A DNA stretch of 64,000 nt, taken from assembly GCA_001824255.1 (NCBI GenBank), contig MHWQ01000002.1, forward strand, positions 139,548 through 203,547. The letters are read 5' to 3'. Shown here piece after piece: positions 9,192 to 48,496 of this stretch; the stretch's first letter is position 1; every line of letters begins with the position of its first letter. Below the pieces are notes generated by a model. It was not told the origin of the DNA. It ran no database searches and worked only from the letters and a program-made list of their open reading frames with translations. This DNA comes from Candidatus Zambryskibacteria bacterium RIFCSPLOWO2_02_FULL_51_21. GTDB lineage: Bacteria; Patescibacteriota; Minisyncoccia; Phycocordibacterales; Zambryskibacteraceae. The position numbers were made by a program, and so were the translations under genes.

Positions 9192-9196
9192 TTAAG

Positions 9197-11607: not shown

Positions 11608-11683
11608 TACGTCTATATAAGGTAGGGGTTTTGCGAAAATGCCGGATTATGATAATCTATCATTAATAATTAATAATAAAAAT

Positions 11684-12850
11684 ATGAAAAAAACCGTTTT
11701 TATTATCTCCATCACCCTTATCTTCGGAACCTTCCTCATTTCGGCCAATCGAGCTAATGCGGGTTGGAGCTGGCCGTGGAAAACAAACAACGAGCAGGGT
11801 GTAGAACAGGCGAGAGGGCAAAAAGCCGGTTGGTCTGAGAGGTTTTTTAGCTGGAGAAAGAAGAATAATACTTCGGAGTCAATCGTGAAAAAAGTCACAG
11901 TAATCAGAGAAAATGGCGGCCGGGTCGATTGGCTGGCAGACAAAGATTTGATTGTCTTTGACGCCCCTCATGACGGCGGATTCAGTGACGTGTTCGTAAT
12001 GAACGGCAATGGTTCCGGCGAGAGATGCCTGACTTGCAATCATCCCGCGTTGCCGAACAAGCATATGGGTAATCCCGCCTGGCATCCTTCGGGCGAATAT
12101 GTCGTCTTTCAGGCCGAGAAGAAGGAGCACCCCGACTCTTCCGAGCTGGCAAAACCCGGCCGAGGCACGTATAACGACCTCTGGGTTATCGGCATCAAGG
12201 GCGACAAGGTCTGGAAACTGACTGACCTGCCGTCTCCTCCGGCGACCGGCGTTTTGCATCCTCACTTCTCCCATAACGGCAAGAAACTTTTCTGGGCCCA
12301 GAGAGAGAAGGGCGGCGGGTTATTCGGAGTCTGGTCCTTAAAAGTTGCCGACTTTGATGTTGTCGGCGGCATACCGAGATTGTCGGACATAAAAACATAC
12401 CAACCCGGCAAGACACCGAAATTTTACGAAAGTCATGGCTTTACCAAGAACGACAGAGGGATAATATTCTCCGCCAACTCTGAAGACCAGTCGGAAACCG
12501 GCTTCGACCAGTATGTTATGGACTTGGCGACCGGCAAGCTTACTAATTTGGTCGGTACTCCCAGAATTTGGGACGAACACGGCCAGCTTTCGAACAGTGG
12601 CAGAAAGATTGTTTGGGCTTCCAGCCGCGACCTGACGGTACCGCATCTCGACCTTTGGACAATGAACGACGACGGCTCGGACAAAAAGAGATTGACATAC
12701 TTTAACGACAAGAGCTGGAAATTCTATCTCGGAGTGAACGGCTCGCCAGCGGACAGTTCGTGGGGTCCGGGCGACAAAAAGATGGTCACCTTCGTAATTA
12801 CCGACGATAACCTAAGCTTGGGTAAAATCGTTATTCTTGACTTAAAATAA
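11684..12850 (+). CDS. TolB-like (PD40) beta-propeller repeat protein, secreted
   Basis: Signal peptide, then repeated blocks of the form 'G..i.F.s.r.G...l..m..DGS..k.LT'. Confidence 0.55.
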   Translation: MKKTVFIISITLIFGTFLISANRANAGWSWPWKTNNEQGVEQARGQKAGWSERFFSWRKKNNTSESIVKKVTVIRENGGRVDWLADKDLIVFDAPHDGGFSDVFVMNGNGSGERCLTCNHPALPNKHMGNPAWHPSGEYVVFQAEKKEHPDSSELAKPGRGTYNDLWVIGIKGDKVWKLTDLPSPPATGVLHPHFSHNGKKLFWAQREKGGGLFGVWSLKVADFDVVGGIPRLSDIKTYQPGKTPKFYESHGFTKNDRGIIFSANSEDQSETGFDQYVMDLATGKLTNLVGTPRIWDEHGQLSNSGRKIVWASSRDLTVPHLDLWTMNDDGSDKKRLTYFNDKSWKFYLGVNGSPADSSWGPGDKKMVTFVITDDNLSLGKIVILDLK

Positions 12851-16549: not shown

Positions 16550-17971
16550 ATGGCAAAAGCCTTAAAAAGCAATTATGGATTGATCGGCACAGCCGTTTTT
16601 TTACTGTACATAATGCTTTACCATCCTCCCTTGGTCTCAGCTTCACTGCCGATTCCGGTCGAGGGTTGCCCAATGGCGCATTGTGACCCATTTATGAGCG
16701 ACAACAATTTTATGATGCCGCCTCTAGGAAGCAGCATTGGGACTGTTTGGCAAAAAAATTCTATGGGAGGAGAGCAGCAAGGATCCTATTATGGCTTGGG
16801 GTGTTCCAGCAATACCGTGGTCGTGGCCTGCACTTATGGATCACTCAGCCGGCCTGGTCTCGGGCAAAATCTGATAGTTTATGACTTCGACGGCAATGCT
16901 TTGTGGAATTCAGGTCCTGAAAGCAGCCTTAATAACATAGCTTATACGTCTGCCCCTTTGTTCGACGCGGATGGAAATGTCTATGTTGCCGATAATATCC
17001 GTATTGTGAAATATAGCCCCGCCGGGACGGAAATATGGCGAAGTAATTTCCCTTCCCCCTCTGCACCCATTAGTCCTGTTCCTACCGAAAGCGGCTATAT
17101 AATTTTAGGGACTATAAGCGGTTATATCTACGCTTACGATATGAGCGACGGCAGCCTTCTAGGTTCATTATTGCTTAAGGATAATCCTTCGGACAGTTAT
17201 TATTACCAGACCAGAAATACTCCAGCGGTTGTTGGCGATAAAATCTATATTTCAAGCCATAGATCGGATGACTATAAACATGGCGCTCTGTTTGCGCTAA
17301 GACTCGATCCTTCCAATCAGATTAATCCTCTGCAAATTTCCTGGAAATATGATTTTGCAGGTCCGAGCGGGGCCAGTCCCTTGGTTGTGGCCACACCAAC
17401 GGAAACAAAGATTTATTTTGACGGCGACAACATCCAGTTGGATGGTTCGGCTTTAGCGTTAATTTACGGGATATCCGACATTGTTGGCGATTATCCGGAC
17501 ACTTCGTCATTGATTTTTCAAAAAAGGGCTTTCGGGAAACCCGGGAGAATAGTTGCATCGTTTGCCCTAGATCCGCGCGGAGGATTCTGGACTTATGTGG
17601 GCGTGAGTCCCTGGTTGCAATATAGGGATTCCGCTAGCGGCATAGCCGCTGCAAACAACAATATAAATGTCGACGCGTTGATTAATGATCCCGATTATAT
17701 TCACTTGCCCATGTCGGCAATGTCTATCGTCGGCACCCCAACCAATCCGATTATGATTGTATCGGCCATAACGACGGTTGCCGGCGGCAACCAGTATGTA
17801 ATAGCGATTGACCTTGTTTCAAAAACTTTGTTATGGAAAGTTCAGACCAATGGCATAGGAGATACCGAAAATACAGCCGGACAGTTTCCGATTCTTTCAA
17901 AAAATGGCGAGCAGCGCGTGATATTTTCAACTAGAAACTTGGGAGCGCGCGCAATTGGCCTGCTTCCCTAG
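16550..17971 (+). CDS. PQQ-like beta-propeller repeat protein (BamB-like fold), secreted
   Basis: Signal/TM. Repeats such as 'DGNALWNSGPE', 'DGNVYVADNIRIVKYSPAGTEIWRS', 'GYIYAYDMSDGSLL'. Confidence 0.55.
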   Translation: MAKALKSNYGLIGTAVFLLYIMLYHPPLVSASLPIPVEGCPMAHCDPFMSDNNFMMPPLGSSIGTVWQKNSMGGEQQGSYYGLGCSSNTVVVACTYGSLSRPGLGQNLIVYDFDGNALWNSGPESSLNNIAYTSAPLFDADGNVYVADNIRIVKYSPAGTEIWRSNFPSPSAPISPVPTESGYIILGTISGYIYAYDMSDGSLLGSLLLKDNPSDSYYYQTRNTPAVVGDKIYISSHRSDDYKHGALFALRLDPSNQINPLQISWKYDFAGPSGASPLVVATPTETKIYFDGDNIQLDGSALALIYGISDIVGDYPDTSSLIFQKRAFGKPGRIVASFALDPRGGFWTYVGVSPWLQYRDSASGIAAANNNINVDALINDPDYIHLPMSAMSIVGTPTNPIMIVSAITTVAGGNQYVIAIDLVSKTLLWKVQTNGIGDTENTAGQFPILSKNGEQRVIFSTRNLGARAIGLLP

Positions 17972-30541: not shown

Positions 30542-31570
30542 ATGTCCCAGAATCAAGCATTGGCACTAGAACCCCAGCCGGCGCATGTCCTCATCGGACA
30601 AAGCGCGCATGCCCAGCGCCTACGCACCTTCGCTTCTCAGGCGGCGCGCGTCCGGCACTCGGTGCTGCTGCTTGGAGAAACGGGAAGCGGCAAGGACCTC
30701 GTGGCGAAAATGATTCACAGTCAGAAAACTCGCTCGGGACAATTCGTCCTAGTGAACTGCGCGGCAATTCCCGAAGCCTTGTTTGAGTCGGAACTTTTCG
30801 GACACGGCAAGGGAGCTTTCACCGGCGCGCAGGAAAGCAAGCCCGGACTCTTCGAGACGGCAGAGCATGGCACGATTTTCCTCAACGAAATCGGCGAGCT
30901 CCCGTCAGCGATGCAAGCGAAGCTTCTGGAAGCGCTCGAGAACGGCAACTATCGTCGGGTGGGCGAGGTTACGGGCAAGACAATCAAAACCCGCATCATC
31001 GCCGCCACCAATGTCAACATCAAGAAAGCCCTGTCGGAGGGCAAGATGCGTTCCGACCTCTATCATCGCATCAATGTTCTCCCGATGACGGTACCGCCAC
31101 TGCGGGAACGCCGCGAGGACATACCCGACCTGGCCAACTACTTTTTGCGCCAGGAGGATGACGCGAAAACGATAGCGCCGGAAACCATGGCCGTGTTCAG
31201 GAAATACGAGTGGCCTGGCAACGTGCGGGAACTCAAGAATACAGTCATCAGAGCCGTCTTCAATTCGAACGGCGAGCCGAGCATCGGACCGGAACATGTC
31301 AGGCCGCATCTCAAAGAAGAACCTCCACAGGGAAACGAGAACTGGGTTCAAAGACTGGTTCCCAATTCCCAAGAGAAATTCCCGACCTTTGGGGCGGTCA
31401 CCCAGGCCGCGGAAAGGGAGTACCTCAAGGAGGTTCTCACTCGAACCGGCGGCAATGTCAAAAAGGCCGCTCAACTGGCCGGAACCTGTTACCGGAAGCT
31501 CCTTCTCGAAGTGCAGAAGCACAATCTGAGAGACTTGGTGAGGGAGCTGAGGAACCCTTATTCCGAGTAA
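30542..31570 (+). CDS. sigma-54-dependent transcriptional activator, AAA+ domain + HTH only (PspF-like, no sensor/receiver domain)
   Basis: Walker A 'GETGSGKDLVAKMIH', 'ESELFGHGKGAFTGA' (GAFTGA loop), Arg finger region. C-terminal HTH 'VKKAAQLAGTCYRKLL'. Confidence 0.8.
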   Translation: MSQNQALALEPQPAHVLIGQSAHAQRLRTFASQAARVRHSVLLLGETGSGKDLVAKMIHSQKTRSGQFVLVNCAAIPEALFESELFGHGKGAFTGAQESKPGLFETAEHGTIFLNEIGELPSAMQAKLLEALENGNYRRVGEVTGKTIKTRIIAATNVNIKKALSEGKMRSDLYHRINVLPMTVPPLRERREDIPDLANYFLRQEDDAKTIAPETMAVFRKYEWPGNVRELKNTVIRAVFNSNGEPSIGPEHVRPHLKEEPPQGNENWVQRLVPNSQEKFPTFGAVTQAAEREYLKEVLTRTGGNVKKAAQLAGTCYRKLLLEVQKHNLRDLVRELRNPYSE

Positions 31571-33414: not shown

Positions 33415-34086
33415 CTATCTCGCGGGTGTTGTAGTCGCAGTCTGGAGCTTCTTCAATGCCGGGACGTTCTTCTCAAGCTCTTCGACAGTCTTGAAGCCGT
33501 AATAGGGAACACCGTTGATGATAAGAGCCGGGAGCCGGTCTTTCACTTTGTTTATGGATATAAGAGTCTTGATGGCGCCGAGGTCGTAGTCATAGTCGAA
33601 AGAGTAGACGCGCAGGTCAGGATACTTGTCTCGGAGAGCGGTGAGGACATAGCCCATCTTCTCGCAATCCTCGCAGCGGTCATCTTCGGAAGAGTAGAAG
33701 TAGAGGATGAAGGTGGACTTCACATTGCACTTTAGGGCGAGCTGCTTCATCAGGAGATAATCCTTGATTTCAAGCAGGAAGTAAGAGCGCTTGAGAGAGT
33801 CGACATCCGCGTCGTTGAAACCCTTCTGGTCCTCGGCGTAGGAGAGACGCTCGCCCAGAGGTCCAAGCTCCTTCGAGAGGAAACCGGGGCCGATGTCGCG
33901 GCAGGAAGTTTCTGCCAATAGCGAGAACTGGGTCTCAGAGGAGAGGATGTCGAGAGCCACCCGGTTCTCGATGTCGCGGACGTCTTCGAGCTTCTTGCCG
34001 GTGAGGATGTTGCTGGCGAAAATAGCGGTGCCAAATATCGCCGCGGTAATAATAAACGCCACCAAGTATTTCTTCGAATCAATCAT
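33415..34086 (-). CDS. thioredoxin-fold protein with CxxC (DsbA/glutaredoxin-like), membrane-anchored
   Basis: N-terminal TM. 'SSEDDRCEDCEKMGYVL' CxxC in a thioredoxin-like context. Confidence 0.5.
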   Translation of the reverse strand: MIDSKKYLVAFIITAAIFGTAIFASNILTGKKLEDVRDIENRVALDILSSETQFSLLAETSCRDIGPGFLSKELGPLGERLSYAEDQKGFNDADVDSLKRSYFLLEIKDYLLMKQLALKCNVKSTFILYFYSSEDDRCEDCEKMGYVLTALRDKYPDLRVYSFDYDYDLGAIKTLISINKVKDRLPALIINGVPYYGFKTVEELEKNVPALKKLQTATTTPAR

Positions 34087-34089
34087 TAT

Positions 34090-35379
34090 TTAGCGCCAGC
34101 TTACCTTTCTCTTGAATGCCGTGTCAAATAGGGCCTTGATGAGCCAGAGGGGAACCAGAAAGGTGTAGAGGAAGAGGTAGTAGAAGATGCCTCTGTGGAG
34201 CTTGAACTTGCCGTCGGCAAGCTTGAGCGAGAGATAAAGTATGAAAAGGGTTAGGCCCACGGCGGTGATGACGATGATGGGCAGAATGCCGGTGTTGAGG
34301 AAGTACCAGTCGAAGGAAGGCCAGTGAAGCTTGCCGGCAAAACCCACGGCCCGGAAGCGGGTTGCGAGATTCAAACCTTTTTCGACGAAGCCTGTCAGCA
34401 CATTGCCTACCATGATGAGGGAAGTGAAGAGGGAAAGCGTGGCGATAGGCATGATAAACATTCCGAAGTGTCCATATTGTCTGTTGAAGAAAAGGGTTTT
34501 GTAATCGATGGCATTGTTGAGGAAGCCGTATGACCAGCGGGCTCTCTGCTTCACCAGACCCTTGAGAGTTGCCGGAGCGACGGTATAGACGTGCGCGCCG
34601 TGAGAGTTGACGATTTTGTAATGATTCTTTTGCATCCTCATGGCCATCTCCATGTCCTCGGTCATATGGGCGTGTTTGTAAGGACCAAGGTCTCTGAACA
34701 CTTGCGCGCGGAAGATGGAGAAAGGACCCGGAGTAACATAGAGCGCGCCGAGAGAGGAGAGCATGCGGCGCAGGAATATAGACCAACTGTATTCCGTCTT
34801 CTGGATATGCTGGAGAATATTTTTAGGTTCATGAACTTTGATAGAAGGGGTGACGGCCATGACTTTCGGGTCATCGAAGTAGGGAATAATTTTCTTCAAC
34901 GCGAGTGGAGTGACAAAGGAGTCCGCGTCGAGGCAGCCAACAAGTTCCGTCTCAACCTTTTCGAGAGCGAGATTCACAGCTGTGTGCTTGCCGCCGTTCT
35001 TCTTGTCGATAACACTTATTCGGGAGTTCGTTTTGAAACTATTCAGCACTTTGAGCGTGCTGTCGGTCGAACCGTCGTTCACAAGGATGAGCGAGAGTTT
35101 GTCTTCCGGATAGTCCAAAGCAAGAATAGACTCTATAGTCGCGGCGACAGTCGCTTCTTCGTTGAAACAGGGGACGATGACCGTGGTAGTTGGGAAGTTG
35201 GCGATACCCTTAAGGCTGCGCTCATCCTCAAGCTTAATCTCGCCCCTGACCTCAAGGTAGGTAATAAGCAGAAACACCTCGAAGAAGAGGGATATGAAGA
35301 GGGAACAGTATAAAATGATGGCCTGAACGTCTGCCATTGCGATAAAGTTCACTATACCATAGCATATAGACGATGTCAC
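34090..35379 (-). CDS. family 2 glycosyltransferase, processive membrane synthase type (PNAG/cellulose/chitin-synthase-like)
   Basis: 'VIVPCFNEEATV...LILVNDGSTD' DxD region, 'QRARWSYG' (QxxRW-like). Multiple C-terminal TM helices. Confidence 0.8.
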   Translation of the reverse strand: MTSSICYGIVNFIAMADVQAIILYCSLFISLFFEVFLLITYLEVRGEIKLEDERSLKGIANFPTTTVIVPCFNEEATVAATIESILALDYPEDKLSLILVNDGSTDSTLKVLNSFKTNSRISVIDKKNGGKHTAVNLALEKVETELVGCLDADSFVTPLALKKIIPYFDDPKVMAVTPSIKVHEPKNILQHIQKTEYSWSIFLRRMLSSLGALYVTPGPFSIFRAQVFRDLGPYKHAHMTEDMEMAMRMQKNHYKIVNSHGAHVYTVAPATLKGLVKQRARWSYGFLNNAIDYKTLFFNRQYGHFGMFIMPIATLSLFTSLIMVGNVLTGFVEKGLNLATRFRAVGFAGKLHWPSFDWYFLNTGILPIIVITAVGLTLFILYLSLKLADGKFKLHRGIFYYLFLYTFLVPLWLIKALFDTAFKRKVSWR

Positions 35380-36521
35380 AAAACATAGTCATACAGAGCG
35401 AGGACGAGCAGCGGCTCAAAGCGGAGCTCGAGAAGCGACACGACGCAGAGGCGGAGCGCATGAAGCGACTTTTGAATACGCCGGATCTGTCGCGCACTCC
35501 CGGCAGCCCGATTTATGAAATAGTCCGGAAAGTTATTGAGATTCCTGATTTCAATGGCTTCGACATAATACAAGTGCCTGAGATAGTACCGGCGGACATT
35601 AGCTTCGACCTCTTCGATTTCCCGGCTGACCATCCTGCCAGATCAAGGTCGGATACGTATTACGCTGATGACAAGAACATCCTGCGCACCCACACGACCG
35701 TGATGTGGTACTACTACTTGCAAAATGAGGATGTAAAAAAACGCATGGCAAACGGCGAGCCTGTGGGCTGCTTCTGCTTTGGCAAGGTTTACAGGAAAGA
35801 TGAGATCGATAGGAAACACATGAATATCTTCCACCAGATAGACGGCTGGTACTTGGCGCCGAAAGATAAAAGGCTCCTAGGCGCGGAAGATTTGGAGAAT
35901 GCTTTAAGAGCCATCGCTCGAGAGGTATTCGGTCCTGAAGCTAATATCAAAATTTTTGAAGATACATTCCCTTATACCGACCCATCACGACAAATGGAAA
36001 TTGAGAAAGATGGCTCATGGCTAGAAGTATTGGGAAGTGGGGTGGTGAAAGGCAGTGTTTTGGAGAAATTCGGTGTCGACTCGAGCAAATGGAATGGTTG
36101 GGCCTTCGGCCCCGGTATTGAACGTCTGGCCATGGCAGCATTAGATGTGCCTGACATGAGGCTTTTCTGGTCCAAAGATCCGAGAGTAGTAAGCCAGCTT
36201 AAACTGGGTAATAAGTATAAAGAGGTTTCCAAATATCCTCCCGTTGTTCGCGACATCTCATTTGTTGTTACGCAAAATTTCATCGCCAATGATTATTTTG
36301 AAATGGTCCGTGAAGTCGGCGGAGCAATGATTGAACATGTCGAGCTTTTGGATAAATACGAGAACACCGAGAAATTTGGTGCTGGGAAGTTGAGCTACAC
36401 CTATCGCATCACTTATCGCCACTTAGAACGCACTCTGACGAATGAGGAAGTAAACAAGGTCCACGCCGATCTGGAGGCCCGTACGGAGGCTGATTTCGGA
36501 GCATCAATTCGCCGAGATTAG
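35373..36521 (+). CDS. pheS: phenylalanine--tRNA ligase, single-chain type: PheS catalytic core fused to a C-terminal FDX-ACB-like anticodon-binding domain
   Basis: Class II motifs 'PADHPARSRSDTYY', 'GCFCFGKVYRKDEIDRKHMNIFHQIDGW', 'GPGIERLAMA'. Then a ~95-aa tail 'SKYPPVVRDISFVV...KLSYTYRITYRHLERTLTNEEVNKV'. No pheT adjacent. Confidence 0.75.
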   Translation: MSQNIVIQSEDEQRLKAELEKRHDAEAERMKRLLNTPDLSRTPGSPIYEIVRKVIEIPDFNGFDIIQVPEIVPADISFDLFDFPADHPARSRSDTYYADDKNILRTHTTVMWYYYLQNEDVKKRMANGEPVGCFCFGKVYRKDEIDRKHMNIFHQIDGWYLAPKDKRLLGAEDLENALRAIAREVFGPEANIKIFEDTFPYTDPSRQMEIEKDGSWLEVLGSGVVKGSVLEKFGVDSSKWNGWAFGPGIERLAMAALDVPDMRLFWSKDPRVVSQLKLGNKYKEVSKYPPVVRDISFVVTQNFIANDYFEMVREVGGAMIEHVELLDKYENTEKFGAGKLSYTYRITYRHLERTLTNEEVNKVHADLEARTEADFGASIRRD

Positions 36522-36578: not shown

Positions 36579-38534
36579 ATGGCAGAAAAGAAGGCTAATT
36601 ACAGCGCTGAATCTATCACTGTTTTGGAGGGTCTTGAACCTGTCAGGAAGAGACCTGGCATGTACATCGGCACGACTGGACCGGACGGTCTCCACCACCT
36701 GGTTACCGAGATTTTCGACAACTCCAGGGACGAGGCCATGGGCGGCTTCGCCAATGATATTGAGGTGGCGCTTCTGCCCGGCAACCGCGTGCGAGTGGTA
36801 GACAATGGCCGAGGCATCCCGGTTGATATTCATAAACAGACGAAAGTTTCCGCGCTCGAAACAATCATGACCACTCTCCATGCCGGAGGCAAATTCGGCG
36901 GCGAAGGATACAAGGTTTCCGGCGGTCTCCATGGTGTCGGCGCTTCGGTAGTAAACGCCCTTTCTGTTTATTGCCGAGCGGAGGTGCACAAAGACGGAGG
37001 CATTTATATGCAGGAGTACAGCAAGGGTAAGAGGAAAGCCGCGGTAAAGAAAATTGGACCGTCGAAGCAGACCGGCACCATCATCACTTTCCAGCCGGAC
37101 CCGGAAATATTCCCCAACACTGACTTCGACTTCGACCAGATAGTCACTCACATGCGCCAGCAAGCGTATTTGGTGAAGGGCTTGCGCATCAGTATTCTTG
37201 ATGCGCGAGAAGCCAACAAAATTGATGATTCCGGAATCTTTTACATCCGCGAGCTGGGCCTCAACACTCCGTCCATGTCGTTTTATTTCGAGGGGGGGCT
37301 GGTCTCGCTTGTGCGTTTCGAGAATGAGCACCTGAAGCCGATGCATAGGAATATTTTCTACGTCGAGAAGATGGCTAACGGCAACGACTACGAGACAGTC
37401 GAGGTGGCGCTCCAGTACGTCGAAGATATTTCTTCGCGCCTTCTGCCTTTTGCAAACAATATCTACACTGCCGAGGGTGGCACACATGTCACCGGCTTCA
37501 AGACGGCCTTGACGCGAACCATCAACTCCTACGCCAGGAAAAACAACCTCGTAAGCGAGAAGGAAGACAACTTCACCGGCGACGACGTCTTCGAAGGACT
37601 CACGGCGGTGCTTTCGGTCAAGCTGCGGGAAATCCAGTTCGAAGGCCAGACCAAGGGCAAGCTCGGCTCTGTCGAGGCCCAAGCCATGGTCACGACCGTC
37701 TTCGGCGAGGCCTTCGGCCAGTTCCTCGAGGAGAATCCGGACGACGCCAAGGCCATTATCCAGAAGGTGGTGCTGGCTCTTAAAGCCCGTAAAGCGGCCA
37801 AGGCGGCCAAGGACTCGGTCCTGCGCAAAGGCGCCTTGGAGGGCATGACGCTCCCGGGCAAGCTTGCCGACTGCCAGAGTCGCTCGGCCGAGGAGTCGGA
37901 GCTATTCATTGTCGAGGGAGATTCCGCCGGCGGCACGGCCAAGATGGGCAGGGACAGGCGCATCCAGGCGATTCTTCCTCTGCGGGGAAAAATTTTGAAT
38001 ATAGAACGAGCTCGTCTCGACCGTATGCTCGCCAGCGAACAAATCAAGAACCTGGTCGTCGCTCTCGGCACGGCGATAGGGGACACATTCGATATTTCGA
38101 AGCTCCGTTATCACAAGATTATTATCGCGACCGATGCCGACGTGGACGGCGCGCATATTCGCACCCTTCTCCTTACTCTGCTTTACCGCTTCTTCCGCCC
38201 GCTTATCGACGCAGGGCATGTTTACATCGCTCAGCCGCCGCTTTATAAAATCAAGAAGGGCAAGGAAGTCCACTACGTGTACTCCGAAGCGGAGAAGAAC
38301 AGAATCACTGACGAGAACACCGGCGATATCCAGCGCTACAAAGGTCTCGGAGAAATGAATTCCGACGAACTCTGGGAAACCACCATGGACCCGGCCAAAA
38401 GGATTTTGAAACTCGTCAAGGTTGAGGACGCCCGCGAAGCCGACCGCATCTTCGACATCCTCATGGGTAGCGACGTCCCGTCCCGAAAATCTTTCATACA
38501 ATCGAATGCCAAAAAAGCCGTTTTGGATATCTAA
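36579..38534 (+). CDS. gyrB: DNA gyrase subunit B (type IIA topoisomerase ATPase subunit)
   Basis: 'LEGLEPVRKRPGMYIGTTG', GHKL ATPase, Toprim 'EGDSAGG', 'PLRGKILN'. 651 aa. Confidence 0.85.
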   Translation: MAEKKANYSAESITVLEGLEPVRKRPGMYIGTTGPDGLHHLVTEIFDNSRDEAMGGFANDIEVALLPGNRVRVVDNGRGIPVDIHKQTKVSALETIMTTLHAGGKFGGEGYKVSGGLHGVGASVVNALSVYCRAEVHKDGGIYMQEYSKGKRKAAVKKIGPSKQTGTIITFQPDPEIFPNTDFDFDQIVTHMRQQAYLVKGLRISILDAREANKIDDSGIFYIRELGLNTPSMSFYFEGGLVSLVRFENEHLKPMHRNIFYVEKMANGNDYETVEVALQYVEDISSRLLPFANNIYTAEGGTHVTGFKTALTRTINSYARKNNLVSEKEDNFTGDDVFEGLTAVLSVKLREIQFEGQTKGKLGSVEAQAMVTTVFGEAFGQFLEENPDDAKAIIQKVVLALKARKAAKAAKDSVLRKGALEGMTLPGKLADCQSRSAEESELFIVEGDSAGGTAKMGRDRRIQAILPLRGKILNIERARLDRMLASEQIKNLVVALGTAIGDTFDISKLRYHKIIIATDADVDGAHIRTLLLTLLYRFFRPLIDAGHVYIAQPPLYKIKKGKEVHYVYSEAEKNRITDENTGDIQRYKGLGEMNSDELWETTMDPAKRILKLVKVEDAREADRIFDILMGSDVPSRKSFIQSNAKKAVLDI

Positions 38535-38611
38535 AGTTGTGCTTGACAATGGGGTTATAATCTGTTTTACTTAATGCAGACAGCCAATTTGGCTAATTCA
38601 AGGAGTAGCCA

Positions 38612-39316
38612 GTGAGAAACGATGTCGTTGCCCGCTTTACGTTCTTGGTCTTATCGGTACTCCTCCTCATCTCGCTCTTCGGCCGATGCGCGCACGCGCA
38701 GGCAGCGAGTGAGAAGGGCTACAGGATTTCCGCAATCTCGTCCGGCTCTGGGGAAAGCCCGATTACCTCGGGCATCTTCGCCACCATGCAGCTCAAGAAC
38801 AGCGGCTGTGGCTTCATCGAGGTAACGGCCCAGGAGACACAGGCGTGGCTCATGCACGGCTGCGACAAGGACTTCGGCCCCGTGCGTACCAACCTGTACT
38901 GGTCGGTTGGCCACCAGGGAGGCGCTCCGTGGGTCGGACCGTACCTCGCCGCGACCATTCCATTCGCCAAAGTCGGCGGGCACGAAATCTCCCTCACGGG
39001 ACTCGCCTGGCCAGGATTCTTCCTGGGACGGGAACCGAGTAGCCGAAGGACGGAAAACGACGGGGTCCAAAACCATGAAGCGCTGCTCGCCGGCTGGTTC
39101 GAGCTCCTTTCGCTAAATGTGGGGCGAGTGTCATTCACCGCCTCGCATCTGAACTACCTCGACACCCCGAATGAGTATCTCTACGGTGTCGAGTACACCA
39201 AGAAACTCGTCGAGAATGTCGACGCGAAGGGGAGCGTCAACTGGTACCAAGCCAAGAAGCCGGAAGATAGGCGCTTCATGTACTTCATCGGCGCCACCTG
39301 GCGGCCGAAGAAATAG
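38612..39316 (+). CDS. hypothetical secreted protein (high-GC islet)
   Basis: Signal peptide 'FLVLSVLLLISLFGRCAHAQA'. Local GC ~60% gives shadow ORFs in all frames. No domain recognised. Confidence 0.4.
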   Translation: MRNDVVARFTFLVLSVLLLISLFGRCAHAQAASEKGYRISAISSGSGESPITSGIFATMQLKNSGCGFIEVTAQETQAWLMHGCDKDFGPVRTNLYWSVGHQGGAPWVGPYLAATIPFAKVGGHEISLTGLAWPGFFLGREPSSRRTENDGVQNHEALLAGWFELLSLNVGRVSFTASHLNYLDTPNEYLYGVEYTKKLVENVDAKGSVNWYQAKKPEDRRFMYFIGATWRPKK

Positions 39317-39431
39317 CAAGTTCGCTCGCGCCGCGGGGACCATCTGGTCTCCCGCGGCGTTTTTGTTTACTTGACTATTCTGTTTCAGAAATGCATAGTA
39401 CAGGAAGACGTTCACCCGGCATTTAGGCCTT

Positions 39432-40025
39432 GTGCCTGGAGAAAAAGCCATGTTCAACTTTCTCAGGACCTTCGTCGTCAGCGCATTCGTTTTCGCTTTC
39501 GGGCTCATGGCGAGCATGAAGCTCTTCGGAGTCGAACTGCCGTCTGACCCAGACGTCGTGTTCCTCTGCATCATGCTCGTAGTGGGACTGGTCGCCAGTC
39601 TCGTGGAGACCCTGCTCTCGCAGCGACGCAAGCTCCGACAACTCGACGCGGCGCTGTGGCTCTTCTGGCAAGTGGGAGAGAGAAAGGAAATGCAAGATCG
39701 TCTCGATGCTTTGCTGGAATCGCGTGCGTCCGGGATCCAGGAGGCGGAAGCGTACTTGAACACCTTGTATCTTGAGGGAGTGAAGGGCGCCCCTCATCTA
39801 GCGCTCTTCAATTCAAGCAATGTGAGGAAGACCCATCGAGATGAAGAGTGTGGGCGGAAAGATAATATCAGATTCGCGGAAAACGCCTTCTTCTCGCTCT
39901 ACGACCATGCCGTGGCGGCGAGGAAGGAACTCCCAGGCCTGAAACTCAAGGATCGCTTCTGGAAGCTCTACCTGAAGCAGCCGGAGAACCCCGCCGAACC
40001 GGAAAAAACCGGCACGGCGGACTGA
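39432..40025 (+). CDS. hypothetical 2-TM membrane protein (high-GC islet)
   Basis: Two N-terminal TM helices, then a charged soluble domain. Terminator follows. Confidence 0.4.
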   Translation: MPGEKAMFNFLRTFVVSAFVFAFGLMASMKLFGVELPSDPDVVFLCIMLVVGLVASLVETLLSQRRKLRQLDAALWLFWQVGERKEMQDRLDALLESRASGIQEAEAYLNTLYLEGVKGAPHLALFNSSNVRKTHRDEECGRKDNIRFAENAFFSLYDHAVAARKELPGLKLKDRFWKLYLKQPENPAEPEKTGTAD

Positions 40026-40044
40026 ATCGCCGCCTAGCGACGGC

Positions 40045-40075
40045 CTAAAGACTGGCGGACCCTTGCGGGTCCGCC
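40045..40075 (+). terminator. Rho-independent terminator
   Basis: 'ggcggacccttgcgggtccgcc' + ttttcactt. Confidence 0.65.
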
Positions 40076-40186
40076 TTTTCACTTATCCACAGTTTGAAGG
40101 GAAAAGGAGGGTATTGCGTCTAGTATTGTGGCGATGGGTGGGATAGAATGTTAAGGGGTGGGAAAAAGTGGTATTATGAAAAAAAT

Positions 40187-40582
40187 ATGTTTATTGGCGA
40201 ATACACCCATAATCTCGACGAGAAGAATCGTTTCTCTCTTCCAGCGAGACTCCGAAAAGCTCTCGGCAGGAAAGTCGTTGTTACTCGAGGCAAAGATCAT
40301 TGCCTTTTTCTCTATCCCAGCGGGACCTGGCTTCAAATCTCACAAGAGGTTAAGAAGTTAGGCCACGTGGAAGCGGACCCGCGCTTCGCCAGGTTCACCT
40401 TCGCCGGCGCGGCCGAGATTGAGATTGACTCCTTGGGCAGGATTCTAATCCCCGAATTCTTGCGGGAATTCGCTGAGCTCGCAAACTCGATTGTCATCAC
40501 CGGAGTCCACGATAGAGTGGAAATTTGGAATGACAAGAAGTGGGCCGCTTACAGAAAGAAGCTTGAATCGGAATATGCATAA
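40187..40582 (+). CDS. mraZ: transcriptional regulator MraZ
   Basis: 'MFIGEYTHNLDEKNRFSLPARLRKALG' plus a second SpoVT/AbrB-like repeat 'DSLGRILIPEFLRE'. Confidence 0.85.
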   Translation: MFIGEYTHNLDEKNRFSLPARLRKALGRKVVVTRGKDHCLFLYPSGTWLQISQEVKKLGHVEADPRFARFTFAGAAEIEIDSLGRILIPEFLREFAELANSIVITGVHDRVEIWNDKKWAAYRKKLESEYA

Positions 40583-41384
40583 GCCGGTCCTTTTGCGGGA
40601 AGTCATAAGCAATCTGAATTTGAAGGATGGGGAAGTGTTTGTGGACGCGACATACGGAGCCGGCGGTCATACAAAAGAGGTTCTGAAGAGATTCCCGGGA
40701 GTGAAAGCCATAAGCATTGACCAGGACCCGGAAACTCACGCCGATATCACCGGCAATTTCCGGGACTTGGACAAGCTTATCGGCGACACAAGACCGGATG
40801 CCATCCTTCTCGACATCGGCCTCTCGAGCGACCAGCTAGAAAATTCCGGCCTGCCTGCCGGTAGGCAGGGCAGGGGATTCTCTTTCCAGAGAGACGAGCC
40901 GCTCGATATGCGGATGTCGGGGAAAGGAATTACGGCCGCCGAAATCCTCAACTCCTGGGACGAGCCAGCCATTGAGCTCATCCTCCGGGGATTCGGCGAA
41001 GAGCGATTCTCAAGATTAATCGCGAAGAGAATTGTCGAGAGAAGACAAACGAAGCCGTTCAAAACCACTTTCGACTTAGTAGATGTGATAGGTGGTAAGC
41101 GAAGCAAGATTCATCCGGCCACCCGCACTTTCCAGGCCTTGCGCATCGCCACGAACGAAGAACTCGCGGCTCTCGAAGAAGGTCTGGAGAAGGCATGGCA
41201 AGTCTTGAAGCCGGGCGGCAGGATTCTGGTCATAAGCTTCCACAGCTTGGAAGACAGGATAGTGAAGAACTTCGCGAAGAGGGTAATGGGCAAAGCAAGG
41301 AAACCCATTACTCCTTCCGACGAAGAAATTGGCGAGAACCCGAGGTCGAGAAGCGCCAAATTAAGAATCATCGAAAAACCATGA
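40575..41384 (+). CDS. rsmH: 16S rRNA (cytosine1402-N4)-methyltransferase RsmH
   Basis: 'MHKPVLLREVISNL', 'DATYGAGGHT', 'GGRILVISFHSLEDRIVK'. Confidence 0.9.
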   Translation: MHKPVLLREVISNLNLKDGEVFVDATYGAGGHTKEVLKRFPGVKAISIDQDPETHADITGNFRDLDKLIGDTRPDAILLDIGLSSDQLENSGLPAGRQGRGFSFQRDEPLDMRMSGKGITAAEILNSWDEPAIELILRGFGEERFSRLIAKRIVERRQTKPFKTTFDLVDVIGGKRSKIHPATRTFQALRIATNEELAALEEGLEKAWQVLKPGGRILVISFHSLEDRIVKNFAKRVMGKARKPITPSDEEIGENPRSRSAKLRIIEKP

Positions 41385-41761
41385 TAAAAAAATTCAGGAT
41401 AAGCGACGAACAGCTTGCTCTGCCGTTCAGAGAAAGGCCCGCAAGGGTTCTCTCTCTCCGGAGAGTCAGTTACGAAGACCGCCAGAGGACCTTCTGGGTG
41501 CTGGCGGGCATTTCCATATTTTCCCTTTTCATCTATTTTTACGCCGTAAACGCTATCGCCAGGAACACCGCCTTGAGGAGCAATCTGGAAGCCCATCTCT
41601 CCGACGCCGGTTCCCGCATCGGAGCTTTGGAATTCTCATATATCGAGCTGCGAAACGGCATTACGAAAGAAAAAGCGGGCGAACTCGGCTTTTCTGAGGT
41701 AAAATCTCCTCTATACGTCTCAAGAAATGCCGCTGCCGCCCTTACTTTCCATTCAGAATAG
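41381..41761 (+). CDS. ftsL: FtsL-like cell-division protein (single TM + coiled coil)
   Basis: Position between rsmH and ftsI. One TM 'FWVLAGISIFSLFIYFYAV', then helix. Confidence 0.5.
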   Translation: MIKKFRISDEQLALPFRERPARVLSLRRVSYEDRQRTFWVLAGISIFSLFIYFYAVNAIARNTALRSNLEAHLSDAGSRIGALEFSYIELRNGITKEKAGELGFSEVKSPLYVSRNAAAALTFHSE

Positions 41762-43496
41762 GTTACGCTTCCTCTCCCTTCTCATACTTCTTTTCGCGCT
41801 GTTCCTTATTGCGAAGCTTTATGCCGTGCAGATTATTTCCGGAGAAGACTTCGAGCTCAAGGCGGAGCACCAGTACGTGGCGGGGGTGAATTATTTCGAC
41901 CGGGGCTCGATTTTCTTCTCCACCAGGGACGGGTCGCTCGTGCCGGCGGCGACGGTCAAGCTCGGCTTCATCCTCCACATCAATCCCGGCATATTAATCG
42001 AGTACGGAGCGGTAGAGAGCACCTACGAGAAATTGAACGCCATCGTCCCCCTCGACAAAGCGGATTATCTCGCCAAGGCGGGGAGGACCAGCGACCCGTA
42101 CGAAGAGCTCAAGAGGCGCCTCGGGGAAGATGAGGCGAGACAAATCCAGGCCTTGAAGATTCCCGGCGTGGCCGTCACGCGCGAGAGATGGCGCGTTTAT
42201 CCCGGAGAGACCATGGCCGCCCACGCGGTGGGACTTATCGGCTACGGTCCGACGGGAAGCGAGATTGCAGGCCGCTATGGACTCGAACGCAAGTACGAAG
42301 ACGTCCTCGGCAGGAAGGGCGACGATGTCTTCGTCAATTTCTTCGCGGAAATATTTTCCAATATCAAGGATAAGGCCTTGGGTGACGGTGCGCTCGACGG
42401 CGACATCGTCACGACCATCGAGCCCTCGGTCGAGGCCTTCCTCGAAAGCGAGATTAAGAAGGTGAACGACCAGTACTTATCAGAATTTACCGGCGGCATC
42501 GTCATCGACCCCACGACGGGCGAGATTGCCGCCATGGCGCTGACGCCGACTTTCGACCCTAACTCTCCGCAAGAAGCGGAAAGTTCAAATATTTTTTCTA
42601 ATAAACTTATCGAAGACCGCTATGAAATGGGCTCGATTATAAAGGCCATGACCATGGCCTCCGCCCTTGATGCCAAAGCGGTAACGGCCAAGACCGCTTA
42701 CAACGACCCGGGCTGCATGACTTTGAATACTAAGACTTTCTGCAACTACGACCTGCGCTCTCACGGTACCAGCGTCACCATGCAGCAGGTGCTCGATCAA
42801 TCGCTCAACACCGGCGCCGCCTTCGCCGCGCTCCGGATGGGCCCGAAAAAGTTTGACGAATACATGCTCCGCTTCGGCCTGGGGGACCTCACGGGCATAG
42901 ATTTGCCGAATGAGGGCAATTCGCTCGTTTCCAATTTGAAGACCAATAGGGAACTCGAGGCCGCCCAGGCCTCCTTCGGCCAAGGCATCGCGCTCACCCC
43001 TATAACGACCGTACGGGCCATGTCGGCCTTGGCGAACGGCGGTACGCTTATTACACCCCATTTGGTCAAGGAGATACGCTATAAAATAGGACCAAATAAA
43101 ACACTTAGTTATCCGGCAGCCGGAGAAGGGGAGAGGGTCATAAGCCCGGAAGCATCGGCCGAGATTTCGAGGATGCTGACGGAAGTTGTGGATACATCTC
43201 TGCGCTACGGTCAGATGAAGATTCAGAACTACTCAATCGCCGCGAAGACCGGCACGGCGCAAATCGCAAATCCGGCCGGCGGCGGCTATTACCAGGACCG
43301 GTTCCTCCACTCCTTCTTCGGCTACTTCCCGTCCTACGACCCGGAGTTCCTGGTCTTCCTCTTCACTTATTATCCGAAAGAAGTGCAGTTTGCTTCCGAG
43401 ACCCTGACCGACTCCTTCTTCAACATCACCAAGTTCCTCATAAATTATTACGAAATCCCGCCGGATAGAGAATCTTCTCCCCAGGCCTCAATTTGA
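41727..43496 (+). CDS. ftsI: penicillin-binding protein 2 / FtsI (peptidoglycan D,D-transpeptidase)
   Basis: N-terminal TM and dimerisation domain. 'GSIIKAM' (SxxK), 'SLN', 'KTGTA'. Confidence 0.85.
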   Translation: MPLPPLLSIQNRLRFLSLLILLFALFLIAKLYAVQIISGEDFELKAEHQYVAGVNYFDRGSIFFSTRDGSLVPAATVKLGFILHINPGILIEYGAVESTYEKLNAIVPLDKADYLAKAGRTSDPYEELKRRLGEDEARQIQALKIPGVAVTRERWRVYPGETMAAHAVGLIGYGPTGSEIAGRYGLERKYEDVLGRKGDDVFVNFFAEIFSNIKDKALGDGALDGDIVTTIEPSVEAFLESEIKKVNDQYLSEFTGGIVIDPTTGEIAAMALTPTFDPNSPQEAESSNIFSNKLIEDRYEMGSIIKAMTMASALDAKAVTAKTAYNDPGCMTLNTKTFCNYDLRSHGTSVTMQQVLDQSLNTGAAFAALRMGPKKFDEYMLRFGLGDLTGIDLPNEGNSLVSNLKTNRELEAAQASFGQGIALTPITTVRAMSALANGGTLITPHLVKEIRYKIGPNKTLSYPAAGEGERVISPEASAEISRMLTEVVDTSLRYGQMKIQNYSIAAKTGTAQIANPAGGGYYQDRFLHSFFGYFPSYDPEFLVFLFTYYPKEVQFASETLTDSFFNITKFLINYYEIPPDRESSPQASI

Positions 43497-43804: not shown

Positions 43805-45874
43805 ATGCACAATCACGACTGCTGCCACGGGAATCATGAGACCCATCACAAGCACGAGGAGGGTACTTTCTATACCTGCCCGATGCATCCGGAAATTCTC
43901 CAGGACCGCCCCGGCATGTGCCCAGAGTGCGGCATGAATCTGGTGCCGGTAAAGAAAAAACATGATTCGCACGACCACGACAAACATGCGGGCCACTCGA
44001 CCGCCATGTTTTTGCGCAAATTTTGGGTAAGTCTTATCCTAACTATTCCCGTCATTCTCTACGCCGATGCTGTCGCAATAATTTTCAAGTGGACTCCGCC
44101 GGCCTTCCCCGGCTCCCGTTATTTGAGCTTCGTACTAGGTTCAATTGTCTTCTTTTACGGCGGCTGGGTCTTCCTTGCTTCGGCAAAGAGGGAAGTGGAG
44201 GCGCGTCTGCCCGGTATGATGACGCTTATCGCCCTGGCAATTTCGGCGGCCTATCTCTGGAGCGTTTACGCGGTCTTCGCGGGCGAGGAAGCTCTCTTCT
44301 GGGAACTGACTACTCTTATTACCATCATGCTTTTGGGCCACTGGCTTGAGATGCGCGCGGTCTCCGGCGCGCAAGGAGCCCTGAAAGAGCTTTCGAAGCT
44401 TCTGCCTGACATGGCAGAAGTGATTCGTGGCGGCAAAACGGAAACAATTCCGCTTGCCGAACTCCGCGAAAGTGACATTGTCTTCGTCCGTCCGGGAGCA
44501 AAGATTCCCGCCGACGGTGTCATTATGGAAGGGGAAACCGAGGTCAATGAATCCATGGTTACGGGCGAATCCAAACCCGTGGGGAAAAAAGAGAATGACG
44601 CCGTCATCGCCGGCACCATCAACGGCGACGGTTCTCTCAAAATCAAGGTAACGCAGATCGGCGAACACACTTTCCTAGCGGGTGTCATGCGCCTGGTGGC
44701 TGAGGCGCAGGCCTCCAAATCCCGGCTTCAAATCCTCTCGGACCGCGCCGCGCTCTACCTTACTTTCGTCGCGGTCATAGGCGGAGCCGCGACGCTTGTT
44801 GCCTGGCTTCTTGCCGGAGCTGAAGTGAGTTTCGCCGTAGCCCGACTTGTCGCTGTCCTCGTCATTGCCTGCCCGCACGCGCTCGGTCTCGCCGTGCCTC
44901 TTATCGCCTCGATTTCCACGACCAAGGCGGCGCAGAACGGCTTCCTCGTCAAACAACGCCTCTCGCTTGAGGCGGCGCGTTCCGTCGATACGGTTCTCTT
45001 TGACAAAACCGGAACCTTGACCAAGGGGGAGTTCGGGGTAGTTTCCGCGAGTTCCGACGAAGCATTGGCCCTGGCCGCGTCAGTCGATTCGCATTCCGAG
45101 CATCCTGTTGCCAAGGGTATCGTGAGAGAGGCAATAAAGCGCGGCCTTGAGTTGAAAGAAGTAAAGAATTTCAAGCGCATCAAAGGCGTCGGTTCCGAAG
45201 CAGAACTTGTGGATATAGGTTCTGCAAGTTTAAGTGTAAAGAAAATTTTCGTCGGCCACCGGGGCGAAGACGGCATAGTGGTAGAAGTGGATGGCAAAAA
45301 AATCGGCGACATCAAGCTTGCGGATGAAATCAGGCCCGAAGCGCGCGAAGCAATCGCCGCACTGAAGAAAATGAACATCAAGGTAGCAATGATTACCGGC
45401 GACTCGGAAGAAGTGGCCGCCTCTGTCGCCAAAGAACTTGGGATAGACGAATACTTCGCCAGAGTGATGCCGGGGGAGAAATCCGAGAAAATAAAAATTC
45501 TTCAATCGAAAGGACAGAAGGTCGCCATGGTCGGCGACGGCATCAATGACGCCCCGGCGCTTACCCGAGCCGACCTGGGACTCGCGATTGGCGCCGGCAC
45601 CAACGTCGCCATAGAATCTGCCGGCATAATTCTCGTGAGGAACGACCCCCGCGATATTGCAAAAGTGATTAACCTTTCGCGCCTGACTTACACCAAGATG
45701 ATTCAGAATCTCTTCTGGGCAACGGGCTACAACGTGGTAGCCATGCCCTTGGCGGCCGGAGTGCTTTACTCCAAAGGCATTGTGCTTGAACCGGCGGTGG
45801 CGGCGGTGCTTATGTCCGCGAGCACCTTCATCGTAGCCATCAATGCCATGCTGTTAAGAGGAAGGAAAATATGA
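43805..45874 (+). CDS. copB: copper-translocating P1B-type ATPase, CopB-like (CPH motif, His-rich N-terminus)
   Basis: N-term 'MHNHDCCHGNHETHHKHEEG...TCPMHPEI...CPECGM...HDSHDHDKHAGH'. TM 'IACPHALGLA' (CPH). 'DKTGTLT', 'GDGINDAP'. Confidence 0.9.
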   Translation: MHNHDCCHGNHETHHKHEEGTFYTCPMHPEILQDRPGMCPECGMNLVPVKKKHDSHDHDKHAGHSTAMFLRKFWVSLILTIPVILYADAVAIIFKWTPPAFPGSRYLSFVLGSIVFFYGGWVFLASAKREVEARLPGMMTLIALAISAAYLWSVYAVFAGEEALFWELTTLITIMLLGHWLEMRAVSGAQGALKELSKLLPDMAEVIRGGKTETIPLAELRESDIVFVRPGAKIPADGVIMEGETEVNESMVTGESKPVGKKENDAVIAGTINGDGSLKIKVTQIGEHTFLAGVMRLVAEAQASKSRLQILSDRAALYLTFVAVIGGAATLVAWLLAGAEVSFAVARLVAVLVIACPHALGLAVPLIASISTTKAAQNGFLVKQRLSLEAARSVDTVLFDKTGTLTKGEFGVVSASSDEALALAASVDSHSEHPVAKGIVREAIKRGLELKEVKNFKRIKGVGSEAELVDIGSASLSVKKIFVGHRGEDGIVVEVDGKKIGDIKLADEIRPEAREAIAALKKMNIKVAMITGDSEEVAASVAKELGIDEYFARVMPGEKSEKIKILQSKGQKVAMVGDGINDAPALTRADLGLAIGAGTNVAIESAGIILVRNDPRDIAKVINLSRLTYTKMIQNLFWATGYNVVAMPLAAGVLYSKGIVLEPAVAAVLMSASTFIVAINAMLLRGRKI

Positions 45875-47770: not shown

Positions 47771-48496
47771 ATGGAAACAGAGAACAATAAATTTCTTCTG
47801 CCCGGCGCCATAGTGGTAGCCGGCATCATCGTCGCTCTGGGCCTTGTCCTCGACGTGGACGAGCCAAGGACGCCCATTGCTGCGCAAGGGAAGCCGGTCG
47901 AAACGGAAGGCTTGACCCTGCCTGTAACCTGGGGCGACTTGGGCAGGCAAATGGTCGCAAACGGCACCATAGACCCGGAGAAGCTCCAGTACGCTTACGA
48001 ATTCGACAATAAAGAATTGGAGATTACGAGAGAAAATGCCGGAAGATTGCTCAACGTCCTGTGGGCTCTGGGCCTCTCGAGCAAGAACGAGATTCTCGAG
48101 CAGGGGGAGATGACCGACCCGCGCTTCGGCGGAGTAGAGAACTTTGCTTCGACCGCCGGCTGGACCGCGGCCAGAGGCTCCGCCATGAGCCACTACAGCA
48201 TGCACCGCTATTTCGAACTGGATTCGGAACAGCAGAACAGGGTGGACAGGGTCTCAAGAGACATCTACCGGCCGTGCTGCAGCAACTCCGCGCACTTCCC
48301 GGACTGCAATCACGGCATGGCCATGCTCGGGCTCCTGGAACTTCTGGCAAGCCAGGGGGCAGGGGAGGAGGAGATGCGAAACGCGGCTCTAGCCGTCAAT
48401 TCTTACTGGTTCCCGTCCCGAAGTAGCCCCGGAGGGTGCTCGATAGAGAGTGGCGCAACGCCAGCTCCTACGAAACAGAGCGGTTGCGGGTTATAA
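47771..48496 (+). CDS. membrane-anchored Cys/His-rich protein (candidate metal-binding)
   Basis: N-terminal TM, then an extracytoplasmic domain containing 'YRPCCSNSAHFPDCNHGMAM'. High-GC patch. Confidence 0.45.
   Translation: METENNKFLLPGAIVVAGIIVALGLVLDVDEPRTPIAAQGKPVETEGLTLPVTWGDLGRQMVANGTIDPEKLQYAYEFDNKELEITRENAGRLLNVLWALGLSSKNEILEQGEMTDPRFGGVENFASTAGWTAARGSAMSHYSMHRYFELDSEQQNRVDRVSRDIYRPCCSNSAHFPDCNHGMAMLGLLELLASQGAGEEEMRNAALAVNSYWFPSRSSPGGCSIESGATPAPTKQSGCGL

Follow-up and report, generated by a model that had tools for sequence, protein, structure and literature searches.

Two genes, here named ORF A and ORF B, lie between gyrB and the division and cell wall (dcw) gene cluster of a Candidatus Zambryskibacteria genome. 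They were analyzed in a stretch of 64,000 nucleotides (nt) from contig MHWQ01000002.1 (assembly GCA_001824255.1). All coordinates are positions in this stretch, and "the window" means the whole of it. A preliminary description of the same DNA had presented the two genes as an islet of raised guanine-plus-cytosine (GC) content, probably acquired horizontally, that encodes a signal-peptide protein of 234 amino acids and a protein of 197 amino acids with two transmembrane segments. Both had been described as lacking recognisable domains and as candidates for novel envelope factors. At the protein level this description was borne out: ORF A (38612-39316) begins with a segment laid out as a signal peptide, ORF B has two hydrophobic segments (a start that gives 191 amino acids being likelier), and neither protein matches an entry of Pfam, NCBIfam, PHROGs or PADLOC. 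Searches against these collections and PDB sequences returned nothing beyond noise for either protein, the noise-level matches being YrvL/DUF5418 (E 0.08-0.2), mL40 (E 0.018) and a thiolase (E 0.22). The envelope assignment can now be sharpened for ORF A, which is predicted by AlphaFold2 (AF2) to be a 12-stranded porin-like beta-barrel of a new family restricted to Patescibacteria.

At 100% identity, the sequence of ORF A equals that of "hypothetical protein A3D49_02995" from a metagenome-assembled genome of Candidatus Zambryskibacteria, and the window is therefore part of a parcubacterial chromosome (candidate phyla radiation, Patescibacteria). A first search returned 11 close homologues, and a profile search of 1.84 billion representative sequences yielded 92 matches at E<=1e-3, of which 39 reach E<=1e-30. 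A scan of a genome collection with a family alignment gave five loci. The length of almost all family members is 190-230 amino acids. Every member with an organism name belongs to Patescibacteria (Zambryski-, Komeili-, Nomura- and Parcubacteria, Paceibacterota), and the family, an undescribed one, is judged by these named sequences found so far in this group only. Our survey of the literature on beta-barrels, porins and KdgM in the candidate phyla radiation (CPR), Patescibacteria and Parcubacteria found no prior description. In Pfam, ORF A itself has no match at E<=1, and among 65 family members there is no match to KdgM, any outer-membrane-protein family or other Pfam family at E<=0.1. The ORF A profile has no sequence match in the PDB, 4pr7 and 2wjr being absent even at E<=10. 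The most conserved motif of the family, E-P...N-D-G-x-x-N-P-E, is located in a loop at residues 139-157. Two metagenomic giants, P0082 (1179 amino acids) and P0104 (4462 amino acids), matched profile positions 20-77 ten times (E 5e-7); they are Calx-beta repeat proteins and were discarded as false positives, and the profile needs a length or coverage filter.

The N-terminus of ORF A consists of a basic n-region (MRNDVVAR), a hydrophobic core and the residues AHA, followed by Gln. The n/h/c layout and the A-x-A motif with the following Gln are found family-wide, and the Gln is more than 90% conserved. The signal peptide was recognized by this layout and by motif conservation, not by a dedicated predictor. 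In the AF2 models the same segment forms a lone N-terminal helix outside the barrel. From these features we infer Sec export of ORF A and cleavage between AHA and Gln.

The fold was predicted in two AF2 runs, one with 11 sequences and one with 40 sequences that included a subfamily at 15-20% identity. Addition of this distant subfamily raised the predicted local distance difference test score (pLDDT) from 81 to 90.2, with a predicted template modelling score (pTM) of 0.77. Both runs produced the same topology, in which the N-terminal helix is followed by 12 antiparallel strands arranged in hairpins, and the five models agree with each other (pLDDT 88-90). When the model was used as the query of a structure search, essentially all of the top 60 matches were membrane barrels. 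Foldseek ranked NanC and KdgM first with a probability of 1.0, and the identity between the ORF A model and the KdgM/NanC structures in the structural alignments was 6-11%. The sequence searches and structure prediction that the preliminary description had called for left ORF A without a family match and with a predicted porin-like barrel.

Two faces alternate along the predicted strands in the 65 aligned sequences. At 46 alternating positions only 1.9% of the residues are charged and 85% are aliphatic or aromatic, while the 51 positions in between comprise 17% charged residues, 40% polar ones and 15% Gly. Conserved aromatic residues are placed near the strand ends (W79, W107, W133, Y177, F182, W211, Y224 and W230). 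The even-numbered strand connections have 2-4 residues; the only long connections, 139-157 and 214-220, are both odd-numbered, which in the model fits the rule for outer-membrane proteins if the N-terminus is on the cell side. The N-terminal signal, the dyad repeat, the even number of strands and the short turns on the side of the termini are all features of that protein type. Because the interior of a 12-stranded barrel without a plug cannot be packed and hydrophobic, the hydrophobic face probably points outward. The other face, the putative lumen, carries charges of both signs (R38, E48, K62, E70, R92, E125, E194, K198, D204 and K206). The chain ends in ...YFIGATWRPKK, and most members end in G-x-T-W plus 3-4 polar or basic residues.

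The features of the locus are collected in Table 1. The neighbors gyrB, mraZ, rsmH and the penicillin-binding protein (PBP) gene are housekeeping genes (by Pfam for gyrB and mraZ). The hairpin behind ORF A has a folding energy of -35.6 kcal/mol (z -7.0), and none of 200 shuffled sequences folds equally well. The hairpin behind ORF B is weaker (-26.4 kcal/mol, z -3.3). Since a terminator follows ORF A and a second follows ORF B, the two genes form two separate transcription units. The strong terminator that had been noted earlier at the end of the region is real according to both the terminator scan and the fold, and the stronger one of ORF A had been missed. Upstream of ORF A, the TGACA of the TTGACA box is invariant in five aligned relatives. 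In related locus L001 it reads TTGACA-18-TATAAT, which is the canonical spacing; in the window a perfect TATAAT (38556-38561) is only 7 nt from the TTGACA, and the position of TATAAT is not conserved in relatives. The box may serve as part of a promoter. The AGGAG of the ribosome binding site (RBS) of ORF A is conserved in L005, L006 and L001. The scan detected no terminator between gyrB and ORF A, and co-transcription of the two is therefore possible.

Table 1. Features of the gyrB-mraZ region and its surroundings in the window.
Feature	Position	Strand	Basis or remark
Single-chain pheS-like gene	35373-36521	+	ORF list and Pfam
gyrB	36579-38534	+	ORF list and Pfam
TTGACA box, -35-like, directly 3' of the gyrB stop and 5' of ORF A	38543-38548	+	Conserved in relatives
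RBS of ORF A, AAGGAG	38600-38605	+	From the sequence; 6 nt before GTG 38612
ORF A, 234 amino acids, GTG start	38612-39316	+	
Signal peptide of ORF A, residues 1-29, MRNDVVARFTFLVLSVLLLISLFGRCAHA followed by Q	38612-38698	+	n/h/c layout and A-x-A motif; inferred cleavage site
Mature ORF A including the stop codon; predicted 12-stranded antiparallel beta-barrel, KdgM/NanC-like fold	38699-39316	+	
Intrinsic terminator of ORF A; GC-rich, imperfect stem of 14 bp followed by UUUUUGUUU	39328-39369	+	RNA fold
Promoter-like site for ORF B, TTGACT-17-CATAGT	39371-39399	+	Consensus scan, 9 of 12 matches; a consensus match only
RBS of ORF B, GGAG	39438-39441	+	From the sequence; 8 nt before ATG 39450
ORF B, orphan, 191 amino acids from ATG 39450 (197 from GTG 39432)	39450-40025	+	
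Intrinsic terminator of ORF B; stem of 9 bp, 8 of them GC pairs, followed by a T-tract	40054-40082	+	Terminator scan
mraZ	40148-40582	+	ORF list and Pfam
rsmH	40491-41384	+	Assigned from ORF order and relatives
Short FtsL-sized ORF	Between rsmH and the PBP gene	+	ORF list
PBP/FtsI-type transpeptidase gene	41727-43496	+	Assigned from ORF order and relatives
Copper P-type ATPase gene	43805-45874	+	3' of the PBP gene

The rise in GC content that had drawn attention to this region is real (58.1% at 38600-40080 against 52.2% in the window, within the top 0.1% of 1.48-kb segments), but it is modest, since about 62% is reached solely at 38600-39200 and the remainder of the region has 54-57%. For gyrB, to which 47-52% had been attributed, we computed 54.6% overall and an internal 400-nt peak of 62.3%; a further peak of 62% is found at 44.6-45.0 kb. 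ORF A ranks first among 60 ORFs in both GC (0.599) and GC at third codon positions (GC3, 0.779), which is about 2.2 and 2.0 standard deviations above the respective means and roughly what the maximum of 60 values should give. Its excess divides into an amino-acid part of +2.8 points (z 1.2; Gly and Trp enriched, Ile, Lys and Asp depleted) and a codon-choice part of +4.5 points (z 1.75), the latter equal to that of the RNase J gene. ORF B is about one standard deviation above the mean on both measures. High GC3 as a mark of high expression was considered and found unsupported, the high-GC3 set being a mixed one (RNase J, DnaB, transketolase, EF-Ts, ribonucleotide reductase and an S41 peptidase).

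Codon usage was scored as a log-likelihood ratio (LLR) with a model trained on 18 genes of the window, 16 of which have Pfam matches; the other two, rsmH and the PBP gene, were assigned by gene order and relatives. The LLR per codon was 0.275 for ORF A and 0.235 for ORF B, within the range of native genes (0.14-0.53), and both genes use native, host-like codons. The remaining frames and the shadow ORFs scored from -1.02 to +0.10. Shadow ORFs had been reported in every frame; they do occur in several, but a coding signal is present in only two frames of the + strand, those of ORF A and ORF B, and the shadow ORFs are therefore by-products of composition. With these scores and with GC z-values of about 2 or less, neither composition nor codon usage points to a foreign origin. 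In 14 of 14 related loci, which span 26-58% GC, the ORF A homologue is GC-richer than the rest of the locus (by +0.016 to +0.20), whatever the local GC. The raised GC is accordingly a heritable feature of the ORF A family, which combines a composition rich in Gly and Trp and poor in Ile, Lys and Asp with G/C-ending codons, and the argument that it provided for horizontal transfer of ORF A is removed. As a matter of method, the case shows that locally raised GC may be a lasting feature of a family of genes without indicating transfer.

The gene order in relatives is consistent with this. It had been asked whether gyrB is directly followed by mraZ in relatives; instead, an ORF A homologue lies between the two in L001 (50% identity) and in L004 and L005/L006 (70%). 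In L002, L009 and L010 the homologue is directly upstream of mraZ-rsmH-PBP, down to an identity of 33%. Overall, this position immediately 5' of mraZ-rsmH-PBP is found in six relatives, with gyrB upstream in four. The homologue in L003 (40% identity) and those of the distant subfamily in L012-L014 are lone genes elsewhere, amid housekeeping genes. The family is single copy in every locus examined, with no paralogue in the window or in the 14 related loci. The region has no integrase and no meaningful flanking repeat, the only repeats being short, imperfect and of chance size, and the tRNAs closest to it lie at 33.3 kb and 48.7 kb. Because of the synteny in relatives, the family-wide GC excess, the host-like codons and the lack of island hallmarks, we regard ORF A as a native, vertically inherited gene. 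In the distant relative L010 a second ORF of 192 amino acids (8628-9635, +) is located between the ORF A homologue and mraZ and has a signal peptide, MRRISMCLALLCVLASNVHAQ. It has a beta-rich, alternating sequence and no Pfam match. It was rejected as a member of the ORF A family since only its signal peptide aligns, and it may represent a further family of barrels in Paceibacterota.

The spacer between ORF A and mraZ, which holds ORF B in the window, is variable. It measures 184-288 nt in L001, L002 and L009, and it holds unrelated small ORFs in L004 and L006; the ORFs of 85 amino acids (L004) and 93 amino acids (L006) that occupy the slot of ORF B were evaluated as its relatives and proved unrelated. 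In a search of 5.8 billion clustered proteins the only match of ORF B was a shorter call of itself, and tblastn found no match in the 14 related loci, including the same slot in the closest relative. ORF B looks like a real gene: its codons carry the native signal, a promoter-like site and an RBS precede it, and a terminator follows. Its start is more likely ATG 39450 than GTG 39432 because GGAG sits 8 nt before the ATG. A third candidate, the later ATG of the 169-amino-acid version in the database, would remove the first helix. The hydrophobic segments (residues 6-24 and 36-54, approximately, in the 197-residue form) are followed by SQRRKLRQ and by a basic, helical domain of about 130 residues that is probably cytoplasmic. 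By the positive-inside rule, ORF B is predicted to be an inner-membrane protein, a two-helix hairpin with both termini inside. The claim of horizontal acquisition keeps some ground for ORF B, which is absent from every relative examined, but its composition is not foreign. A recent origin is possible, by acquisition or by de novo birth, and ORF B may be a young, lineage-specific gene in a variable slot.

Taking these results together, our preferred explanation, to which we assign a probability of roughly 0.55, is that both genes are native, independent and monocistronic and that ORF A is an exported porin-like barrel which serves as a passive channel in an outer hydrophobic layer of the bacterium's own envelope. 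ORF A would be exported by Sec, lose its signal peptide of 29 residues and close into a small, amphipathic 12-stranded barrel of KdgM/NanC architecture. Its outward face would be hydrophobic with aromatic rims and its inward face polar and rich in Gly, Ser and Thr, with short turns on one side and one conserved loop of 20 residues on the other. Placed in a hydrophobic layer outside the cytoplasmic membrane, such a barrel would act as a passive, water-filled channel. The layer could be a sheath poor in lipid and rich in protein, similar to the toga of Thermotoga, and a barrel as small as ORF A could plausibly insert without BAM, the machinery that assembles beta-barrels. The analysis shows the gene structures, conservation and synteny, the composition, the predicted fold and the amphipathic pattern; membrane insertion, location and channel activity are proposed on top of these. 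The bacterium's own layer is favored as the location because the gene is single copy, holds a stable position beside the envelope and division cluster, and has been kept across lineages that are likely to differ in their hosts.

Several points weigh against this explanation. The CPR bacteria have been described as monoderm and placed in a monoderm clade, and they are reported to lack outer-membrane machinery. Cryogenic transmission electron microscopy (cryo-TEM) of ultrasmall groundwater cells revealed a periodic surface layer and no outer membrane (PMC7906910), and CPR genomes are without PilQ and TonB-ExbBD (PMC6744442). There is therefore no known compartment for an ORF A barrel. The C-terminal aromatic residue of the beta-signal is mostly absent, the family ending in G-A-T-W-x-P-x-K, and a terminal F or Y is confined to a few distant members. 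Around the distant family members there are no conserved partner genes that would point to a function. The fold is a prediction, and the outward orientation of the hydrophobic face is argued from geometry and not from model coordinates. As for an insertion machinery, none of 35 ORFs compared with Pfam in the 64-kb window matches Omp85/Bac_surface_Ag. Two beta-propeller genes were also noted in the window. One (16550-17971, +) matches PQQ_2, a family named after BamB, at E 4e-9; it was considered as a hint of BAM and rejected, the match being that of a generic propeller and not outer-membrane evidence. The other (11639-12850, +) has a PD40/TolB-type repeat, a match that is equally generic and likewise not outer-membrane evidence.

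The explanation offered at the outset, a 1.5-kb horizontally acquired islet of two foreign envelope genes inserted between gyrB and mraZ, would account for the region being the most GC-rich 1.48-kb segment of the 64 kb and for the first rank of ORF A among the 60 ORFs, as well as for the absence of ORF B from the relatives examined and for a spacer that differs in length and content among them. It conflicts with the synteny of ORF A in six relatives, with a GC excess common to the homologues in all 14 loci, and with native codon statistics, z-scores of about 2 or less and the island hallmarks that were looked for and not found. At most ORF B alone could be an insertion. We give the islet as a whole hardly any credence, and for ORF A the same gene at the same locus in L001, L002, L004, L005/L006, L009 and L010 refutes the horizontal-transfer reading.

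The other explanations concern what ORF A forms and where. An epibiont might secrete it into the outer membrane, or another lipid layer, of its host, where it would cause a leak of nutrients at the contact zone. Effectors directed at varied hosts are usually patchy, multi-copy and fast-evolving, whereas ORF A resembles a housekeeping envelope gene that stays single copy beside the dcw cluster down to about 33% identity. Moreover, no link to secretion systems or mobile elements was seen at the family loci, and a dedicated delivery system is not apparent; we consider such a host-directed porin unlikely. Alternatively, the hydrophobic face could line a cavity in a soluble or wall-associated exported barrel, for example a carrier of lipids scavenged from the host. 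The dyad pattern alone cannot tell which face points outward, an outer membrane is not known in CPR, and these bacteria cannot make fatty acids and must obtain lipids (PMC7906910). The geometric argument on the interior of a plug-less barrel given above speaks for the opposite orientation, and we hold a soluble carrier to be quite improbable. Finally, the closed barrel might be an over-interpretation, with ORF A being a beta-rich exported sandwich or an oligomerising open sheet. The alignments are shallow (11 and 40 sequences), the pTM is 0.77, the loop at 138-157 is poorly defined, and the closed barrel is a prediction. Yet the five models agree at pLDDT 88-90, the inclusion of an independent subfamily at 15-20% identity increased the confidence, and the twelve regular hairpins keep a strict dyad periodicity over 65 sequences. 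A prediction artefact therefore seems very unlikely to us.

Some other observations were made in the window. The PheRS (phenylalanyl-tRNA synthetase) alpha-type gene upstream of gyrB has a fused C-terminal FDX-ACB domain, which binds the anticodon, as do its counterparts in L001 (3596-4759) and L005 (191-1354). This is the layout of the single-chain, mitochondrial-type PheRS. In L013, a distant locus from Parcubacteria, pheS and pheT are separate genes, as is usual. A sigma-54-type AAA+ activator of 342 amino acids (30542-31570, +) contains Sigma54_activat and HTH_8 domains without an N-terminal receiver or sensor domain; such an activator is unusual in a small CPR genome. The P-type ATPase gene directly after the PBP gene is of the heavy-metal (copper) type and has an HMBD domain. 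It occupies a position at which the dcw cluster of many bacteria goes on. Two ORFs, 47771-48496 (+) and 33415-34086 (-), encode proteins of 220-240 amino acids with an N-terminal membrane anchor and no Pfam match; the former has a GC content of 58.7% and a Cys-rich C-terminus.

The debate about the number of membranes in the first bacteria, one or two, relies on CPR as a large clade of monoderms without any outer-membrane marker. A conserved, single-copy, porin-shaped exported family that is so far confined to this clade does not fit the monoderm picture. The wider proposition, that Parcubacteria and perhaps other Patescibacteria, regarded as monoderm, encode lineage-specific and genuine transmembrane barrel porins beside the division and wall cluster, is a tentative one, and on balance we would sooner doubt it than accept it. 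If it is true, these bacteria have an outer layer that is hydrophobic and has escaped recognition, or they insert porins into host membranes independently of BAM. In the former case the layer could be a toga-like, lipid-poor barrel sheath and possibly the surface layer of 3-4 nm periodicity seen by cryo-TEM; the spacings reported for CPR surface layers are 3.2-3.8 nm and 10 nm (PMC7906910). In either case the family would represent outer-membrane biology, left as a remnant or reinvented, in the textbook clade of outer-membrane loss. ORF A provides a testable handle on the envelope architecture of CPR bacteria and on solute exchange between epibiont and host.

Among known systems, the closest in predicted structure are the KdgM/NanC porins (PF06178; PDB 4pr7, 4fqe, 2wjr, 2wjq and 8xua), with which the ORF A model shares a plug-less, antiparallel barrel of 12 strands and about 200 residues. 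However, no sequence relationship between them is detectable, the profile comparisons of the 65 members and of the PDB having failed to reveal one. KdgM and NanC are outer-membrane porins of diderm bacteria, whereas the phylum of ORF A is regarded as having no outer membrane. The ORF A family ends in W-x-P-x-K instead of a C-terminal aromatic residue, has its own conserved E-P...N-P-E loop, and adjoins gyrB and the dcw cluster, not genes of sugar-acid catabolism. The KdgM/NanC type is a channel for acidic oligosaccharides, with basic tracks in the lumen and co-regulation with sugar-acid catabolism; the charges in the putative lumen of ORF A are mixed. The other 12-stranded barrels of outer membranes, namely FapF, the beta-domains of autotransporters (BrkA, NalP and Hbp), intimin, LpxR and the COG4313 channel, come with a passenger, a plug helix, an enzymatic site or a secretion operon; the predicted barrel of ORF A, in contrast, stands alone, without an additional domain or partner genes. 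The 12-stranded transmembrane barrels designed de novo (PDB 9fdg) are artificial, and show only that small barrels can be stable alone.

The toga of Thermotoga offers a possible model of the place that a barrel of CPR could occupy, as a likeness for which no homology is claimed. In this Terrabacteria lineage without lipopolysaccharide, Omp-beta and putative outer-membrane proteins are Sec-exported barrels with hydrophobic belts, and the outer sheath is largely proteinaceous with only small lipid patches (PMC10160955). By this precedent, a layer of that sort can differ in appearance from a classical outer membrane. Thermotogae possess BamA, Omp-alpha anchors with SLH domains and barrel trimers in a 9.8-nm lattice (PMC10160955), none of which is known for CPR. 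Judged by its model, ORF A thus combines a new sequence family and a known fold with an unexpected cellular setting.

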